A stretch of 63,946 nucleotides of DNA, the filler included, from Bonamia ostreae (lineage: Eukaryota), in NCBI GenBank assembly GCA_040357525.1. It is 9 parts of 9 records of this genome, joined end to end, with 100 filler letters (N's around TTAATTAATTAA, not from the genome) between each part and the next. Parts side by side here need not be neighbours in the genome. Positions count along the whole stretch, not along the records: positions 14,388 to 21,460 come from JBDODL010000097.1; 8 more parts are not named here. The stretch is one strand, 5' to 3'. This document shows positions 7,112 to 28,738 of this stretch, piece after piece. The position numbers and the translations under genes were made by a program. The notes under the pieces were generated by a model. That model searched no databases and had not been told where the DNA came from. It worked only from the letters and a program-made list of their open reading frames with translations. Within the stretch, counting starts at the first letter, position 1. Every line of letters starts with the position of its first letter.

Positions 7112-7211
7112 NNNNNNNNNNNNNNNNNNNNNNNNNNNNNNNNNNNNNNNNNNNNTTAATTAATTAANNNNNNNNNNNNNNNNNNNNNNNNNNNNNNNNN
7201 NNNNNNNNNNN
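7112..7211. other. Artificial contig linker N44-TTAATTAATTAA-N44 (also at 14288, 21461, 28634, 35769, 42878, 49971, 57025)
   Basis: Identical 100-nt block eight times; 12-mer has stops in all six frames; spacing falls from 7176 to 7054 nt, consistent with length-sorted contigs; genes are truncated at the linkers. Confidence 0.97.
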
Positions 7212-12205: not shown

Positions 12206-13198
12206 TCAAAAAATTTTTATTCTCGCAATTAATTTTCTTTGTTCTTTGGAACAGTTTTTTATGGAAAGCAAATCAATCCGCTCAACGATCTGCGTTCCGA
12301 AGTTTAGATCACTGGGAATTTTTTTTATTTGCTTTTTGGCGCTGCGTCTACATCTAAGTGCTGTTACATGAGGAGTTTCTATCGCGGAAATTTGCTCTTT
12401 TGCAATTTCTTCCTTTTATTTTTTTGACTTAAAACTCTTTTTAAAGATGGCATTTTAAAATTTTGTTATTTCAAATATGGAAAAATGCACTTTAAAAGCT
12501 TCACAAAGATTTTTTGAAAAAGAGATCAATTTATCTCTATTTTCTTTATTTTGGGTCGTTATATAAATAATTTTATTCCCAAATTCGCCCGTTCCTCGCA
12601 AATCAAACTTTAGTTTAGTCGGGAATTTAAAATTTTGGAACGATTTCTTGGCCGATTCTATTTGATCATTTGTTTCTAATCGCAGCAGACAAACTGTAAC
12701 ATGCAGTTCCTCTGTTTTCGAGGGCTTCAGTTTTTTGTTTTTGTCTACAAAGCCATTTTGAAAGTTTTCGATATTTTTCAGTGTTTCAGGATTGCTTATT
12801 GGGATTGAAACGTAATAATTAGGCTTCATTTTCTCTGAAGACTTTTTCAAAACCTTCTTTTCCAATATTCCGTCATTTTGGTTTCTGATTTTGCCACTTT
12901 CTTCGTTCATCATCAAATTTGTATTTCCAATTTTATTCGTTTCCGACAAATTTGATTTATCAACGAATGGTTTATTGAAGATTATTTCCGATTCTTTTGT
13001 TTCCGACAAATTTGATTTATCATCGAATGGTTTATTGAAGAACAATGGGATATTTTCTTTTTGTTCATATTTTTGTGATTTGTCGAATGGTTTATTTAAG
13101 TCTCCAGCTTTTAGTATTCGGAAAGTTTTATCGTTTATTTTAATGTCTTCAAATTCCATTTCGAGCAAATCGACTAGACGTTTTGAATATCTTTTCAT
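12206..13198 (-). CDS. AKAP7-like 2H phosphoesterase (2',5'-phosphodiesterase fold)
   Basis: PNYYVSIPI, first HxT (LHVTV), G.GEFG, second HxT (PHVTA) in the spliced last exon; N-terminus has three FNKPF-type repeats. Confidence 0.75.
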
Positions 13199-13395
13199 TG
13201 CTTTTCGAATGGAAATATTTATCGCAAAAAATTGTTAAAATGCCGTTTTGTTAATAATTATTTCCAATTTTAAATATTGCGAAATGCATTTAAATTATCA
13301 GTTTACTCAAAAAAGCTTAAAACTCGTTCAATATTCGTCCGAATCTGTTTTCCCGAATATGTAATTTTTGTTAATTAAAATAAAAATAATTAAAA

Positions 13396-14287: not shown

Positions 14288-14387
14288 NNNNNNNNNNNNN
14301 NNNNNNNNNNNNNNNNNNNNNNNNNNNNNNNTTAATTAATTAANNNNNNNNNNNNNNNNNNNNNNNNNNNNNNNNNNNNNNNNNNNN

Positions 14388-17300
14388 ATCGCAAAAATCG
14401 GCGACAACAAAACTTTCGTCTCCAACTTTGGCGGCAAATTAGCGACATCGACTTTGAACCGCCGCAACATGAACAGCTTCAGCACTTTCTGCGACTGCCA
14501 CATCGTGTCTTCGTTCACCTTGTTTCCGATCAAATTGAAGCCGCGGTCGAAGGAATGAGCCGACTCGAACTGCTCCGGGTACAGAAAGTTCAGCAGCGAC
14601 CAAAGCTCTCGCAAGTTGTTCTGCAACGGAGTACCTGTCAGCAAAATCTTGAAGAACCCCGTTACTCCGCGCAGCGACTCGCTGATCTGCGCGGAGTCGT
14701 TTTTGACGCGGTGCGCCTCGTCCACGACGACGCATTGATAGTGAAAGCGGTTCACGACGACGTTCTCCGCGGCGCGCACCATTTCGAAAGTGGTGACGAG
14801 CACGTCGAACGTCCCGATGTCCAGTCGGTCGCGCAGCACCCGATTCAGTTCTCTCTCGGGTCCGTGGAAGCGCACTACTTCGAGCGTCGGCGCCCAACGC
14901 GCAAACTCGTTGCACCAGTTCGTCAGCACGTTCAGCGGACACACGACCAAAACGGGGCCGACCGCTTTGAGCGTTTTGAGATGCGCCACGAAAGCGATCG
15001 TCTGGAGCGTTTTGCCGAGCCCCATTTCGTCGCCGAGAATGCCGCAAAGTCCGTTTTCATATAAATTTATAAGCCAGTTTAAGCCTTCCATTTGGTATGA
15101 CCGTAACTTGCCGCGGATCTGTTTTGGCTGTCGTTTCAAAGGCTGTTTCGGGGGAGTCTTCGGTTTGGGGGATTTGTTCTTGCGGAGAAGCGCTTTTGCG
15201 GAGGACATGTAGCGCTTCGATACGAATTGTGAGAAGATGTTGGCGTGTTTGATGAAGAATTCTGCGCGTTTCGTGCTGTAGAATTGGATCTTTTCAGGTT
15301 GTTATAAAATTAATTTTTGGTGAATTAGTTTGAGATTTTTGATCTTTATAATGCGTTTTACGATAATTTGGTTAGTTTGAATCATAAAAATTCAAAATAT
15401 ATTTTGCTTTATAGCGAAAAAATGCCAAAAAATAAAATTGACAAGACAGATTTTGTCTTTAAATGGATTAAATTCAAAAACGACAAATCTTCGAAAACAT
15501 TAAAAAACTATAAAAAAATTACCAAAAACACAAAAAAAATGCCAAAAAAATAAAGAAGACTATTTTAGTAAACTAAAGTTTGTAAAATTATCTGAAACTT
15601 GATCTGAGACTTTCTTATTCATTTGCTCTCTCAACTTTTGCTCTTCTTGCGGTGACATGTTATTTTTGTCCTTTATTTCAAAAAATTCGTCCTCTTCTTT
15701 GCTTCTACGGGAAAACGGAGCAATCCGGAGTCGACTTTTTGACAAGCTTTTCCATTGAATCGATTTTTTGGTCGCAAAATAAACGCGTTTCTTGCCGCCA
15801 TTGCGTTTTTCCTTTTGCTTTAACCAGACAGCGAGTCTGCGCGACGAGACTAATTCCTCTAGAACCTCGTCTGCGAAGCAAGGCATTCTTCTCTTCCCCG
15901 ATTCGTAGAAAAACGCGCTTTTGCGTTTGTTCAGCAATTCCATTTGAGCTTTCAGAAGCCTCGTCGGAGTTTTCCTGAGAGAGCGTCGCGGCGGAATCGC
16001 CGCTTTTTTGGAATTTTCTGAATCGCTTTCATCGTCTTCGTTGTCTTCTTTGCTGAAACTTTCGTCTTTTGCGCCATTTCTATCGTCATTTTTTATTTTT
16101 TTATAGTCATTTTTTATTTTTTTGTCGACATTTTTGTCGTCATCTTTATCTTCTTCGTCTTTAATTTTATCTTTTTCGCCATCTTTAATTTTATCTTTTT
16201 CGCCATCTTTAATTTTATCTTCTTCGCCATCTTTAATTGTATCGTCATTGTCACAGTTTTTGATTTTATCTTTAGTTGCGTTTTCCTTTTTTACCGATTC
16301 GTAAAGCGCCCAATTTTTGAACTTCTCCGGCGTCATAGTTTCAATGCGCCTGAAAATGTCCTTTTTCTGAAGACTGAAATGCGGTTCTTGCGCCAAAATC
16401 TCGCCTTCGCACATTATTTAGCAAACCCATCACGAACCCCCGCAGAGCCTCCTTCCGCGCCCCGCTGCTCTCGGGGATGGGATCCGGGATCGGGCAGGAC
16501 GCCTCCACCTCCTCTTCGCTGTAGACGTTCGCGTTTTCTAAAATTGGCATCGAAACGGTGTTCCAGAACGAGTGAAGACGTCAGTCGGAAGGTGTTGCTG
16601 AACTCGTAGAACAGGGATCGCTCTGTCCCGAGCCGCAGTCCTTTGTTGAAGTTCTCTTGGAAGTTCTTGTAGAAAGACGTGTCGTAGTGCTCCTTTATCC
16701 ACGTTTTGATGTTTATCTTGTTCGTCTTGTTCTTTCTACCATTTTATTGAAAACGACTCGTTGAGCTCGCTTATCGCTTCCTTGATCATCTCGACCATCG
16801 CCCTCGGCTTCGGCAGCGCCGGGGGAGGCGGCAAGGAGCTCTCGAACCGGGCGCGCGGAGCCGCCCGGCGCTTCTTCCCGCGCCCTCTCCCGCCGAAAGC
16901 GAAGTGGCTGTACCCGAAATAGGGCCGCAGCAGTGGCCCGCGGGTCCTGCGGTCGAAGTTGGGAGCGGAAAACGGGTTCCGGGAAAGTCCCGGAAAGGGC
17001 GCTGGGCGGAACCGGTGCCGGAAAACGGGCTCTTCGAAATGGTGCTCCAAAGGCTCGAGCGCGCCGTTCGCGGCTTGGAAGGGCGCGAAACCGCGCTGGG
17101 CGGGCTGCGCGCGCATGGAGTTGTGGTTGAGCGCCCACGGATTGTGGCGCGCGGCGTTCTGGTTGAACATGCTGCCGGGGCGCGCGGGGTGGTTTTGGAA
17201 GTTGCGGCGCTGGCCGAAGAACAGCGCCCCGGCGCGCTGCTGCGCAGCCAATCTGCGCTTCTGCATTCGGAGGAAAAAGTCGGCGCGTTTATCGAGCGAG

Positions 17301-17788
17301 GAACTGCGCTGCAGTTGGTCTTCTTTGAGCAATCGGTGGCGCTTGAGCCTCTCGCGGGAAAACCATTTGGCGACGTGGTCGGGGCGCATCGCGAGCCGTT
17401 TCCCGATCAGCTCGCAGTCGGCCGAGTTGGGCGACTGGTTCAACTCGAAGTAGTTGTAAAGAGAGCGCAGTTGCTGCTGAGAGACGAGCGGCAAAAGGGA
17501 CTGGGGCGAAACTGGGCCGGTTTCCGATGGCGTCTCGGATGGGCGTTCCGCGCTTTGGCCCGCTTTTTCGGAGTTTGGGTCCGGGCGGTCTTCGACGATC
17601 TCGAAGGAGCGCTTTGAAACGCTCCTGTTTCTGAGGTTGTAGCCTTGTTCCTTTAATGCGAAAAAAGTCAGAAAGAGAAAAAGGGCTCCGCGGCAACTAA
17701 AGCCGTCGAGCAAAAGTGGCAAATTATCTATCAAAAATAAATTCAAAATTTTAATTTATGACAAAGCTTGAATTAGAATAATGACCAT
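14388..17788 (-). CDS. Homeodomain + H15 winged helix + ISWI-like SNF2 ATPase protein, 3'-truncated
   Basis: Homeodomain (QLRSLYNYF..VAKWFSRERLK); H15-like EMIKEAISELNESKNKTNKINIKTWIKEHY..TFRL; SNF2 motifs GILGDEMGLGKT, DEAH, LTGTPLQN; joined in frame by GT-AG introns; start codon tentative. Confidence 0.75.
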
Positions 17789-18208
17789 ATGTTGCCTGAG
17801 TCTTTTGGGTTTTAAGGTTTTGTGATATGTTGAATATTTAGGTTAATGGCGAGTAGTGAATTCTGTTGTGATTAAAAACCAGACCTTTTTAATATTATTA
17901 AAATGACTTATGTTTTTGCCACTTTTTTGTTTTGACTTTTGTCGAATCTTTAAATCGCTCTTCGTTGATAACACCCGGCGCAACCAGTTAAATATGAAAA
18001 AATATTAGCCTATTTTATTTCGTAAGGAAAGGAAAATTATTTGCAAATCATTTTGAGAAGGATAAATCGAATCAATATTTGCAAAGAAAATAAAAGATTT
18101 GCAAATATTCTGTGTTTCTTATTTCAAATATTTTAAATTTTCCAAAGTACGCTATCATTTAAATCAAATTTTACATTTTAATGGTCAAATTCCAAAAACA
18201 AAAAATGT

Positions 18209-19034
18209 TCAATAACATTTAATAAATTTTGAAGTTGTAAGATTTAATCCTTTTTCAAAATCTTTGATATATTCATTCCAATGAACCATTGTTCTTAAAA
18301 CACTTTTATTTTTCTCAACTTTCTCCAACCATCTTCTCAAAATATTTTTTGACGATAAGTCTCTTAAACTTAACCCTTTAAAATGACCTAAAGCCAAATC
18401 ATATCTGTGCATTACCGGAAAATAACAAATGTCAAACTTAAATTATTGATAAAACAAGTGACAATGTCTTACCCAAATAAAAAGGTCCACTCGATTTCGA
18501 AGTTAATTCGTTTTCAAATTCGTTGACAAAATTTGCAAGTTTTTGTTTTAAATCTGTTTTTTTGTCAGAATGTAGAATTTGGTCAAAAAAATTTACAACA
18601 AAATTAATTTTTGTCACTGCAAATCTCATTTCCGCATTAATGAAAGGATTTTTTGCCACCAAAAAAGATTTGTTTGTAGTATATTCTTCTAAAAATTCAA
18701 TAATTACAATCTAATAATTTTATACAAAAACAGAATTTTTTATAACGCTTTTGCCGATTTTTAAGATTGGAATAACGCCTTCTGGATTCACTTTTTTAAA
18801 CCACTCCGGAATAGTTGTTATTTTGCAAAATTTGAATGGTATTTCCTTTTCTTCTAATGCTATCAATGTTCTTATTTATTGTTTTTATATGTCGATGCAA
18901 ATATCATTGTTACATTTTTATATATTTTGGGTTCTCTTGCCAATATGTATTTAATTTATTACAAAAAGAGACTGTTGTGTGAAAGGGCATGTCGAATAAC
19001 CATAAATTTCAATGTGATTTTCTGATCTGTTCAT
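18209..19034 (-). CDS. Glutathione S-transferase, omega/DHAR-like
   Basis: CPF active-site motif, LIALEEKEIPF, PEWFKKVNPEGVIPIL, GPFYLGKTLS; multi-exon. Confidence 0.8.
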
Positions 19035-19335
19035 TAGGACAAGGCTTGATAATTTTTGATTTTATGATGTAAATATTTTTTTTATTTTTTTACAAATTTA
19101 TTTTTAATAACAACGCTATTTAAATAGTTATTCAAACGATGCTTTATAAATTAAAAAAGAAGTATAAACATGTACATGTCTCAATGATTGCTTAATTTTT
19201 TTAAAAACGTTCAAATCGAAAAAAATCTTTATTTAAAAAATATTCATGAGAATATTAATATAAAATGAAATAAAAAATCAGCGTCCATTATATAAAAAGA
19301 CCTTAAACTCGTAAAAATTAAAGAAAACAACTTTA

Positions 19336-19850
19336 ATGTTTAAAATCGCGAAAAACGAAAATAGAAAAAGAAATTTCAAAAATTTTAGCAGAAACAACAA
19401 TGCTCAAAAAAGTCAACCAATAATCCTCAACAGCAGACAAATCAACAATGCCGTAAAAGATCCATGGTCAAACGAACCACATCACGAAGATTCCTCTATT
19501 TGCCAGTTAAACCCTCTAAATCCAATCACTTCTTCAGAAACACTTAAAACGAGTTCTAATCTGGAACATTCCCCGGAAATTCAAAAAAAGAATTCTTTTA
19601 AAGCAGAAACTGAATTCATAAGAAACGCAGAAAAAATCACAAAAAAGTTAAAAGGAAAAAGCTTATACGAAACTATTTTGCATTTTAAACAAGATTTCAA
19701 TTTTTTGCATATTTTCAAAGTAACTACTTCTATCATTTTTCCTCCTTTTTTGCAAAACTTGTTGTGTAGATAAAAATTCTCCTTTACGCGTCTTTGATAT
19801 TCCAACTTCTCTTCTTAACTCGAGCAGTACATTTTTGCCTTCTCAAATAA
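19336..19850 (+). CDS. Hypothetical protein
   Basis: 145-aa ATG-initiated ORF, probable further exon; no motif recognised. Confidence 0.35.
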
Positions 19851-20059
19851 TTTTATCTGTAAAAAAAGCATTCTCAGTTACAACTCCATTTNNNNNNNNN
19901 NNNNNNNNNNNNNNNNNNNNNNNNNNNNNNNNNNNNNNNNNNNNNNNNNNNNNNNNNNNNNNNNNNNNNNNNNNNNNNNNNNNNNNNNNNNACAAAAATT
20001 TCAAAAATTCCTCATTTTCCAAAGCAAATTCACAAAAATACAAGTGAAAAAATTAAAAT

Positions 20060-20429
20060 TTATTGTTCAGAGTTTTTTGTGTCTAAAAGCAGCTGATCTA
20101 TCTCGACAGGACCAGATTTCTTCTGCAGAAACATTCCAGTTTTGTCCCGAGATCTATTTAGAGCATTTTCTTTCCTGCGACTTTGCTTCTGTAGTGATTT
20201 TTATAATAACGATAATTTTTCTTCTTTTGTAGAACTTGTCTCTCCATTGCCTTCTAAGCAAAATCCGTCTGTACTGCTTTGGATTCACTGCGACACTTTT
20301 TGCCGAAAGATCTTTTGTCCCTTCTGCGTTTTCGGGTTTGGTTTGTTCGAACAGAAAGTCTATCGGGTTGAACTCGTCGATTTTGACCTCTTTCTCGTCT
20401 TCTATCAGAATAGTGTTAAAGTCCGTCAT
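20060..20429 (-). CDS. NFYA: CCAAT-binding factor subunit NF-YA/HAP2-like
   Basis: VNPKQYRRILLRRQWR helix; after a 22-nt intron KQSRRKENALNRSRDKTGMF aligns with the HESRH..AM.R.RG.GGRF DNA-binding motif. Confidence 0.75.
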
Positions 20430-20486
20430 TCTTAACGAGCTTAAATTAAATAAGGATTTTCAATATACACATTTCTTTTTGTCAAA

Positions 20487-21460
20487 ATGGACTTTAAAAG
20501 ATGTTTTCTGGACGTTAGCATAAACGTTTTATTTGCCTTTTGTGCACCATTTTAAAAAATTCTTTGTCACATCCTCGTTGCATGTACATAACAAACAGCC
20601 ACATTGTTCATCTTTAAAGGGAGAAAATCTGGGCAGAATCGTGATCAAACTATTCGGAAACAAAGTCCCGCGTACTGCAAAAAACTTCTCCGACATCTGC
20701 GCCGGCGACAAAAAATCGGAGGAAACGGGAAACCGCCTAACCTACGAAAACTGCGCGGTGCACCGCGTCATCAAAAACTTTATCCTGCAATCGGGCGACT
20801 TTGAAAAGTAGAATTTGCTAAAACATAAAAGAGGCGACGGGACCGGCGGAGAAAGCGTCTACGGCCGAAACTTCAACGACGAACGAATGGACATTCCGTT
20901 CAACAAAGCGGGACTTGTAGCGATGGCCAACGCAGGCCCGAACACAAATGGTTCACAGTTTTTCATAACGTGTGCGCCTTGTCCCCATTTGAACGGAAAG
21001 CATGTCGTCTTTGGAAAAGTGGTTTCCGGAATGTCTGTTGTCCGAAAAATCGAGCGAGTCAAAGTCGATTCCAACAACTCTCCGCTCAAATCCGTCCGGA
21101 TCGCCAAAGCGGGTTTCGCGGAAAAGAATCCCGAACAGTCCGAGAAATCGAGTGGAAAGCCAAAAAAACAGACCGAAAGACCAAACAAACAGCTTAAAGA
21201 GACAGAACAGACGGAAAATCGAAAAGAAAAGTCAAAACCGCTTTTGAAGCCGATCACTTTTATCGGGAAAAGTGGCCGTATCCTCAAAGGACGCGGATTC
21301 ACATCACTTCGCCACGTTGGGAATTTTGGCGGAATTGGCTTTCACAGCGAGACGCCTTCCCCCGAGCGACGCAGGAAGGAGAAACTCAGACGGAAGGTTT
21401 ATAGACGGCGCGAAAAGCCTCGGTACAAAATCAGACGACGAAATATTTCAAAAAGCAACA
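20487..21460 (+). CDS. Cyclophilin-type PPIase with basic R/S-rich tail, 3'-truncated
   Basis: [62 protein letters not shown]; two introns. Confidence 0.92.
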
Positions 21461-21560
21461 NNNNNNNNNNNNNNNNNNNNNNNNNNNNNNNNNNNNNNNN
21501 NNNNTTAATTAATTAANNNNNNNNNNNNNNNNNNNNNNNNNNNNNNNNNNNNNNNNNNNN

Positions 21561-28432: not shown

Positions 28433-28738
28433 TTCTGTTTGTTGTTCAATATATGCAGGTTTTTTATTATAAAAGTTTGGGTTAACGACAAATTTCCAAA
28501 AATGAGTGTCGTTTAACTAGCAAAAGATGAAATTGTAAAAATATTAAAAACAGATTTTTAAATCTAAAAAATTACAAAAATTGCGTTGAAATCTAAAAAA
28601 TATTGAAAATAGTTCTAAAAATCTAAAAAATTGNNNNNNNNNNNNNNNNNNNNNNNNNNNNNNNNNNNNNNNNNNNNTTAATTAATTAANNNNNNNNNNN
28701 NNNNNNNNNNNNNNNNNNNNNNNNNNNNNNNNNACGAT

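Follow-up and report, generated by a model that had tools for sequence, protein, structure and literature searches.

Three kinds of coding sequence follow one another on the minus strand at positions 14388-17788 of the Bonamia ostreae DNA analysed here: a homeodomain, a winged-helix candidate of the linker-histone (H15) type and the first lobe of an SNF2-related ATPase. The question raised by this locus is whether they belong to a single chromatin remodeler or to separate genes. The window, by which we mean the whole stretch of 63,946 nucleotides (nt) taken from assembly GCA_040357525.1, joins nine contigs end to end and supplies the positions used throughout; the locus lies in contig JBDODL010000097.1 (14388-21460). 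We consider it highly probable, judging from the sequence, that it is one gene coding for an ISWI-like remodeler that is devoid of HAND-SANT-SLIDE domains and has its own built-in chromatin-engaging modules. The order of parts is a homeodomain fold, a linker rich in arginine, proline and phenylalanine, the H15-type candidate, a conserved middle module, a helix that precedes the ATPase and, finally, Snf2 lobe 1. After lobe 1, P0001, an orthologue from another species, adds lobe 2, a stretch resembling the NegC of ISWI and an NSD-type PHD finger.

The first-pass annotation had proposed that the apparently separate open reading frames (ORFs) are joined through four GT-AG introns. All four, including the acceptor at 15290, are present in the minus-strand sequence and every donor starts with GTTT (4/4); the long intron measures 309 nt instead of the approximately 320 nt first given. 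Splicing of the five exons yields a single open frame of 999 codons with 0 stops, the remaining two frames holding 39 and 29. Transcript evidence came from sequencing run X1, which contains 69% of the sampled words of the stretch and from which 31 contigs were placed, compared with 0 from run X2. X1 is treated here as RNA-derived because its contigs precisely omit the GT-AG segments. In a 1147-nt contig over 16192-17398, precisely three pieces are missing (16404, 22 nt; 16538, 19 nt; 16736, 19 nt), the gap at 16404 being equal to the intron 16405-16426 through a G repeated at both ends. A second contig of 547 nt passes directly from 15599 to 15289, with 216 nt on one side of the join, 331 nt on the other and CT..AC ends on the plus strand. 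Finally, an X1 contig continues for 1185 nt past 14408, beyond the end of the genomic contig.

All exons and introns lie on the minus strand. The first exon assigned (16755-17650) carries the homeodomain, a linker rich in R, A, P and F and helix 1 of the H15-like domain, on the basis of the open frame and of the X1 contig over 16192-17398. A 19-nt intron (16736-16754, GTTTTC...GGTAG), missing from the RNA contig, separates it from the remainder of the H15-like domain (16557-16735). Next come another 19-nt intron (16538-16556), an exon coding for an acidic and proline-rich stretch with a conserved ...KEALRGF.MG (16427-16537) and a 22-nt intron (16405-16426). Both of these introns are likewise missing from the RNA contig, and both of these short exons are backed by the X1 contig, the open frame and the alignment with P0001. 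The following exon (15599-16404) encodes a middle module, conserved in P0001 and in a third sequence, P0121, and interrupted by a D/K-rich insert. The 309-nt intron (15290-15598), removed in the 547-nt contig, links this exon to the last one (14388-15289), which codes for SNF2 lobe 1 and the helix before it; the junction is in frame and splits no codon (...VSDQ|IQFY...). The last exon stays open up to the run of N and is truncated there, the gene running off the end of its own contig at 14388. Coding stretches have a G+C content of 50-60%, as compared with about 25% in the spacers. Within the 309-nt intron, several X1 contigs match about 36 nt at 15461-15498 and then continue into unrelated sequence, which suggests a short repeated element occurring elsewhere in transcripts.

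At the 5' end, the only ATG of the minus strand within 17651-17830 lies at 17786-17788. It works as a start only if a GT..AG intron follows directly, giving M-EQGYNLRN where P0001 has MMRNYNLRN. A candidate first intron of 135 nt (17651-17785; GT at 17785, AG at 17652-17651) fits the frame of the next exon, and we infer from these sequence features that translation may begin at this ATG.

The fusion is carried further by the orthologue. With the ATPase fragment as query, 8000 longer proteins were scored and 5834 of them matched at E<=1e-30, the best 120 of which were listed. The top match, P0001, is 69% identical and is a 1640-amino acid (aa) ORF filling a 4967-nt contig of another species. 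Aligned to P0001 with BLASTP, the spliced protein of the window shows 389/702 identities (55%) and stays colinear across all four junctions; three of these are free of gaps, and a gap of one residue lies near the second. A separate BLASTP segment spans the homeodomain (26/80 identities). Because P0001 has a single uninterrupted ORF that is colinear through the junctions, the fusion can be regarded as settled. Spliced contig and single-ORF orthologue agree with the earlier proposal that the separate ORFs form one gene.

Relatives that share the N-terminal half are few. Among the best 120 of the 5834 SNF2 relatives, P0001 is the only one with a Homeodomain (PF00046) entry, and none has a Linker_histone (PF00538) entry. 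When the N-terminal 640 residues of P0001 serve as query, proteins of 902-2870 aa yield P0001 and nothing else, and those of 30-901 aa yield only P0121 and P0122. With P0001 residues ~262-624, an HMMER search of 1.84 billion representatives gave 4 matches at E<=1e-3, three of which are real (P0121, P0122 and P0123); the fourth is a repeat protein and is read as a chance match. P0121, which comes from a third source, is an ORF of 343 aa carried by an 11.4-kb contig, and it passes into intron sequence at exactly the codon that marks the start of the 309-nt intron. P0123 (73 aa) corresponds to a relative's H15 exon and ends at the position of the window's second intron. P0122, the gene model that the assembly itself gives for the 7073-nt contig, begins at a methionine just before the 22-nt intron. 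The architecture is rare in databases, in line with the first-pass annotation, which knew of no such three-part arrangement, and the predicted homeodomain-H15-ISWI-like arrangement is so far restricted to Bonamia ostreae and a few close relatives. In the titles and opening parts of abstracts, no description of a homeodomain/H15-Snf2 fusion was found, which is not proof of its being unpublished; the main text of 10.1101/2021.11.30.470311 contains none of the terms homeobox, homeodomain and ISWI.

What kind of motor does the gene encode? SNF2-related ATPase lobe 1 lies at 14405-15097 on the minus strand (PF00176 profile positions 1-239 of 290, 234 bits, E 2.5e-69). In a ranking that compares solved structures only and is not a full phylogeny, lobe 1 of the window scores highest with SMARCA5/ISWI (220-226 bits), followed by ISW1 (205), Snf2 (199) and DDM1 (189). 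In the same comparison the complete motor of P0001 reaches 520 bits with SMARCA5, 478 with ISW1, 393-420 with Snf2/Sth1/BRG1, ~390 with DDM1/HELLS and ~377 with Chd1. Assignment of the motor to the LSH/DDM1 type was considered and rejected on these scores (~390 versus 520 bits for ISWI). The alignment of P0001 with SMARCA5 extends about 90 aa past lobe 2, to chain residue 722, over the stretch that bears the name NegC in ISWI; in the N-terminal region, where ISWI has its regulatory ppHSA and AutoN, no AutoN-like basic patch was seen. Upstream of lobe 1, the helix KRAEFFIKHANIFSQF (15224-15271, minus strand) has no preceding ATG in its exon and is conserved in P0001 as RRAKFFVEHEAIVAPF. This helix had been likened to the N-terminal helix of ISWI/SNF2h, a likeness that scores -1.5 bits and is not significant alone.

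Beyond the motor, P0001 has an NSD-type PHD finger (PHD-1st_NSD, residues 1253-1293, 30.0 bits for a cut-off of 27), and Pfam found no HAND (PF09110), SLIDE (PF09111) or Myb/SANT (PF00249) match in it at E<=0.1. A tblastn search of the whole window with P0001 returned nothing beyond 14405, that is, no 3' half of the gene. With SNF2-rel_dom, the window protein and P0001 score 234-266 bits as compared with 317-355 bits for canonical ISWIs. A quick tree of the motor (27 rows, 698 columns) grouped 11 ISWIs carrying HAND/SLIDE into a clade (SH-aLRT 100) that excludes the window protein and P0001, and placed this pair among ISWI-like protist proteins with PHD, chromo, HMG or no accessory domains. 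The ISWI-like ATPase of the first-pass annotation is consequently retained as regards its nearest solved relatives, which are ISWI, and given up as regards canonical ISWI, since the pair falls outside the HAND/SLIDE clade and the orthologue has no HAND-SANT-SLIDE. Three other ISWI-like motors without HAND/SLIDE were observed, P0010, P0011 and P0060, bearing respectively zf-CW and chromo, HTH_3, and chromo, HMG box and PHD. Such motors point to a little-described modular group of putative remodelers in microbial eukaryotes.

The homeodomain (17342-17482, minus strand) was detected with Pfam PF00046 at 32.8 bits (E 6.3e-8). Scores range from 31.2 to 32.8 bits in the window and reach 27.3 bits in P0001, for a gathering score of 22.9. 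Between it and the H15 candidate lies a disordered linker of about 180 aa (R 16%, A 12%, P 11% and F 10%).

The H15/linker-histone-type winged-helix candidate (16579-16798, minus strand) was found with Pfam and with a PDB profile search, and it is split by a 19-nt intron, which explains why its matches in the window are partial. As an isolated 92-aa piece, the corresponding part of P0001 matches Linker_histone at 27.6 bits (E 3.5e-6; gathering score 22.4), and P0123 scores 14.5 bits. With a three-sequence profile against the PDB, yeast histone H1 domains rank first, weakly (E 0.019). The order of motifs fits that of H15-like winged helices (helix 1, helix 2, helix 3, FRL wing). In the ESM Atlas the candidate has SAMD1_WH and Linker_histone clusters as neighbours, with scores up to 0.87, which we take as a lead only.

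Downstream of the winged helix, the conserved middle module reads GEIL..ETMTP..WALY and then RSLRKTPTR..ATKK.IQWKSL. The first-pass annotation had seen a possible second winged helix there, for which neither Pfam, the PDB profile search, the ESM Atlas nor AlphaFold gave support. Pfam returned 0 matches at E<=1 for the three middle pieces of the window and no family match for this module in P0001, and P0001 residues 380-560 had no usable match in the ESM Atlas. A further PDB profile search gave nothing for the middle module and a weak match (histone H1, E 0.49) for the H15 part. The D/K repeat that interrupts the module is encoded by a 24-nt tandem repeat of 3.6 copies (16158-16243, minus strand; TRF score 158, 96% matches). 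It is a species-specific insert, missing from P0001, and one X1 contig is 3 nt shorter at 16179 within it.

Put together, these parts suggest how the protein may work. The ISWI-like motor would translocate nucleosomal DNA as ISWI does, and it would do so without HAND-SANT-SLIDE, the module that senses linker DNA and on which partner subunits of the DDT type dock. The H15 winged helix on the same chain would engage the nucleosome at the dyad or at linker DNA, the C-terminal PHD finger would engage the H3 tail, and the homeodomain would contribute at best a non-specific contact. Self-targeting by the remodeler, as the first-pass annotation had imagined it, is something we can only infer from this composition. 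The further step, in which the H15 domain and the PHD finger took over the role of HAND-SANT-SLIDE and of DDT partners and made a remodeler of one polypeptide, docking on dyad and linker DNA at the site of linker histones, is offered as a tentative idea that may well prove wrong.

Several observations weigh against this reading of one self-equipped remodeler, or against parts of it. The recognition helix of homeodomains is typified by Trp48-Phe49 and a near-invariant Asn51. With residues numbered on Pfam's ungapped match, the helix keeps the tryptophan and the phenylalanine here, and the position of Asn51 is occupied by arginine in the window (WFSRER) and by glutamate in P0001 (WFEEEK). Because Asn51 is missing in both species, sequence-specific targeting by the homeodomain is doubtful: the fold itself holds, with scores above the gathering score, and the DNA-recognition module attributed to it in the first-pass annotation becomes questionable, non-specific DNA contacts or protein contacts being more likely. 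Support for the H1/H5-like winged helix is at threshold. The isolated P0001 domain scores above the gathering score of 22.4 and full-length P0001, at 22.2 bits, just under it; the window yields two colinear sub-threshold pieces, scored separately (11.8 bits for profile positions 4-17 and 12.2 bits for 24-61). AlphaFold2 models were unusable, both for the 92-aa H15 piece (four-row alignment, mean pLDDT 45.0) and for P0001 residues ~262-624 (six-row alignment, mean pLDDT 45.2); these two low-confidence models show helices where expected, and the hairpin is not predicted. Moreover, lobe 2 and the C-terminus are absent from the window, so that the NegC-like stretch, the PHD finger and the missing HAND-SANT-SLIDE are seen in an orthologue of 55-69% identity. 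The motor tree was built with no outgroup from Snf2, CHD or Lsh, and the position of the pair inside the non-canonical group is weakly supported (SH-aLRT 83-91). On the transcript side, X1 was labelled RNA as a guess, and its contigs cannot yield transcript ends or isoform proportions. At the 5' end, the region 17465-17826 has no RNA contig cover; stretches without X1 cover (17465-17826 and parts of 17827-19274) carry no information.

The alternative that survives best accepts the fusion and gives its N-terminal modules another use. They could be regulatory or protein-binding, for example in autoinhibition of the motor, or the winged helix could bind CpG DNA in the manner of SAMD1 and KAT6 instead of binding the dyad. 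We hold this to be possible and rather unlikely. It would agree with the arginine that replaces Asn51 in the window and with the three glutamates (Glu-Glu-Glu) that occupy homeodomain positions 50-52 in P0001. It would also agree with the acidic/proline stretch (...SEEEVEASCPIPDP...) that directly follows the H15 candidate, where the Lys-rich tail of linker histones is absent. Among ESM Atlas neighbours of the candidate, SAMD1_WH (0.87, 170 shared features) comes ahead of Histone H1 (0.77), a result taken as a lead only. However, the family reported by Pfam is Linker_histone, SAMD1_WH giving no match even at E<=10, and the three sequences do not vary in helix 3 or in the FRLT wing motif, as expected of a surface that contacts DNA.

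It is much less probable that the locus consists of two genes, a homeodomain-H15 protein ending at the stop codon at 15560-15562 and a separate Snf2 ATPase, with the junction contig arising from minor read-through or a chimera. The interval between the two halves does look intergenic: at 309 nt it is much longer than the other introns of the gene, it is AT-rich like intergenic DNA and it has short tandem repeats at 15502-15550. An in-frame methionine is found at ~15208, the contig depth inside the intron reaches 317 in the bin 15293-15473, and the assembly model P0122 ends at a stop within the intron, because of which a short product without the ATPase is possible. Yet P0122 is a model and not a transcript, and at least part of the depth within the intron comes from the contigs that match at 15461-15498 and then trail off into unrelated sequence. 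The junction contig keeps the frame and has canonical GT-AG ends, and its word depth of 2335 is of the order of that of the adjoining contigs (2205 and 1320). In addition, the ORF of P0001 runs uninterrupted over the junction, and P0121 is broken by an intron at this codon too. Ahead of Met15208 lie 27 residues (IQFYSTKRAEFFIKH...) that show conservation in P0001, yet their exon supplies no start codon for them. Met15208 was rejected as the start of the ATPase, conserved residues lying upstream of it and the spliced contig reading through.

An assembly or scaffolding artefact joining unrelated pieces has next to no likelihood: the window is indeed a chain of ~7-kb contigs with N44-TTAATTAATTAA-N44 linkers (7112-7211, 14288-14387, 21461-21560, 28634-28733, then every ~7.1 kb) whose flanks are not genomic neighbours, but the gene part 14388-17788 lies wholly within the contig 14388-21460 and has no N, independent RNA contigs tile it, and the orthologue of the other species has the identical order of parts.

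The single gene predicted here is a real, conserved and lineage-restricted new domain architecture of a known kind of enzyme. Its significance is limited by its narrow distribution and by the threshold-level support for H15, and the function given to it is a proposal drawn from the sequence. The specificity of remodelers is usually attributed to separate accessory subunits or to the HAND-SANT-SLIDE sensor of linker DNA. Here, a sensor-less motor appears to combine on one chain a domain of the linker-histone type and a homeodomain fold, to which the orthologue adds a PHD reader. If the H15 domain binds the linker-histone site, the protein would provide a natural experiment in the sharing of the nucleosome between ISWI-type motors and H1, as well as a compact single-protein system for biochemistry. 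Should the takeover by H15 and PHD finger be true, the remodeler could compete with H1 or replace it while spacing nucleosomes. Read as a Rosetta stone, the fusion would predict homeodomain or winged-helix proteins as partners of ISWI-like motors without HAND-SANT-SLIDE in other protists. There is also a lesson for annotation: the existing annotation splits the locus, because P0122 stops inside the 309-nt intron, and in this lineage such fusions will escape gene finders that disallow introns of 19-22 nt or a single long intron in the company of very short ones.

Other coding sequences surround the gene. On the same contig, a cyclophilin gene lies in two frames at 20527-21330 on the plus strand (Pro_isomerase profile positions 8-57 and 67-158), with a candidate mini-intron of 24 nt (GT..AG, 20808-20831) whose removal would give ...GDFEK|GDGTGG.... 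Pieces of a GST-like ORF occupy 18209-18875 on the minus strand (GST_N_2, 34.7 bits); low-depth contigs skip 62, 88 and 283 nt there, with GT..AG or TG..AG ends on the plus strand, which is at odds with a gene on the minus strand. The neighbouring contig carries an MFS_2 sugar-transporter fragment that runs off the contig end (13522-14274, plus strand, 119.5 bits) and a 2H phosphoesterase domain of the AKAP7 type (12458-13234, minus strand, 60.2 bits), the latter preceded by an AT-rich repeat of the NKPF.DKSNLSETK type.

Among known systems, the ISWI subfamily (SMARCA5/SNF2h, Drosophila ISWI, yeast Isw1) provides the top solved relatives of lobe 1 and of the orthologue's motor. The protein differs from it in that P0001 is without HAND-SANT-SLIDE, in that the window pair falls outside the ISWI clade and in the extra N-terminal homeodomain and H15 domain. 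The non-canonical ISWI-like ATPases of protists that carry a C-terminal PHD finger (for example P0005 of MMETSP, P0006, P0021, P0045 and P0007 of Bigelowiella) are closer in having a motor without HAND/SLIDE, and P0001, P0005 and P0006 have in common an NSD-type PHD finger downstream of the motor; they differ in having no Homeodomain or Linker_histone match. A named protein with Snf2 and PHD, trypanosome SNF2PH, is given in the excerpt of PMC6893287. With linker histone H1/H5 (PF00538) and the winged helix of SAMD1, the candidate domain shares an at-threshold profile match, the order of motifs and Atlas neighbourhood; it differs from H1/H5 in being embedded in an enzyme and in having no Lys-rich C-terminal tail.

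A last comparison concerns accessory subunits. Pfam found no DDT, WHIM or HARE-HTH domain in P0001 at E<=0.1 and none in the window pieces at E<=1. The nearest parallel in function comes from plants, where the DDT-class proteins RINGLET 1/2 are ISWI accessory subunits that combine a homeodomain with a HARE-HTH winged helix, and the DDT domain binds the SLIDE domain of ISWI, according to the excerpted text of PMC4901127. Here, modules of comparable kinds are found in cis, on a motor without SLIDE, a likeness of organisation and not of shared ancestry.

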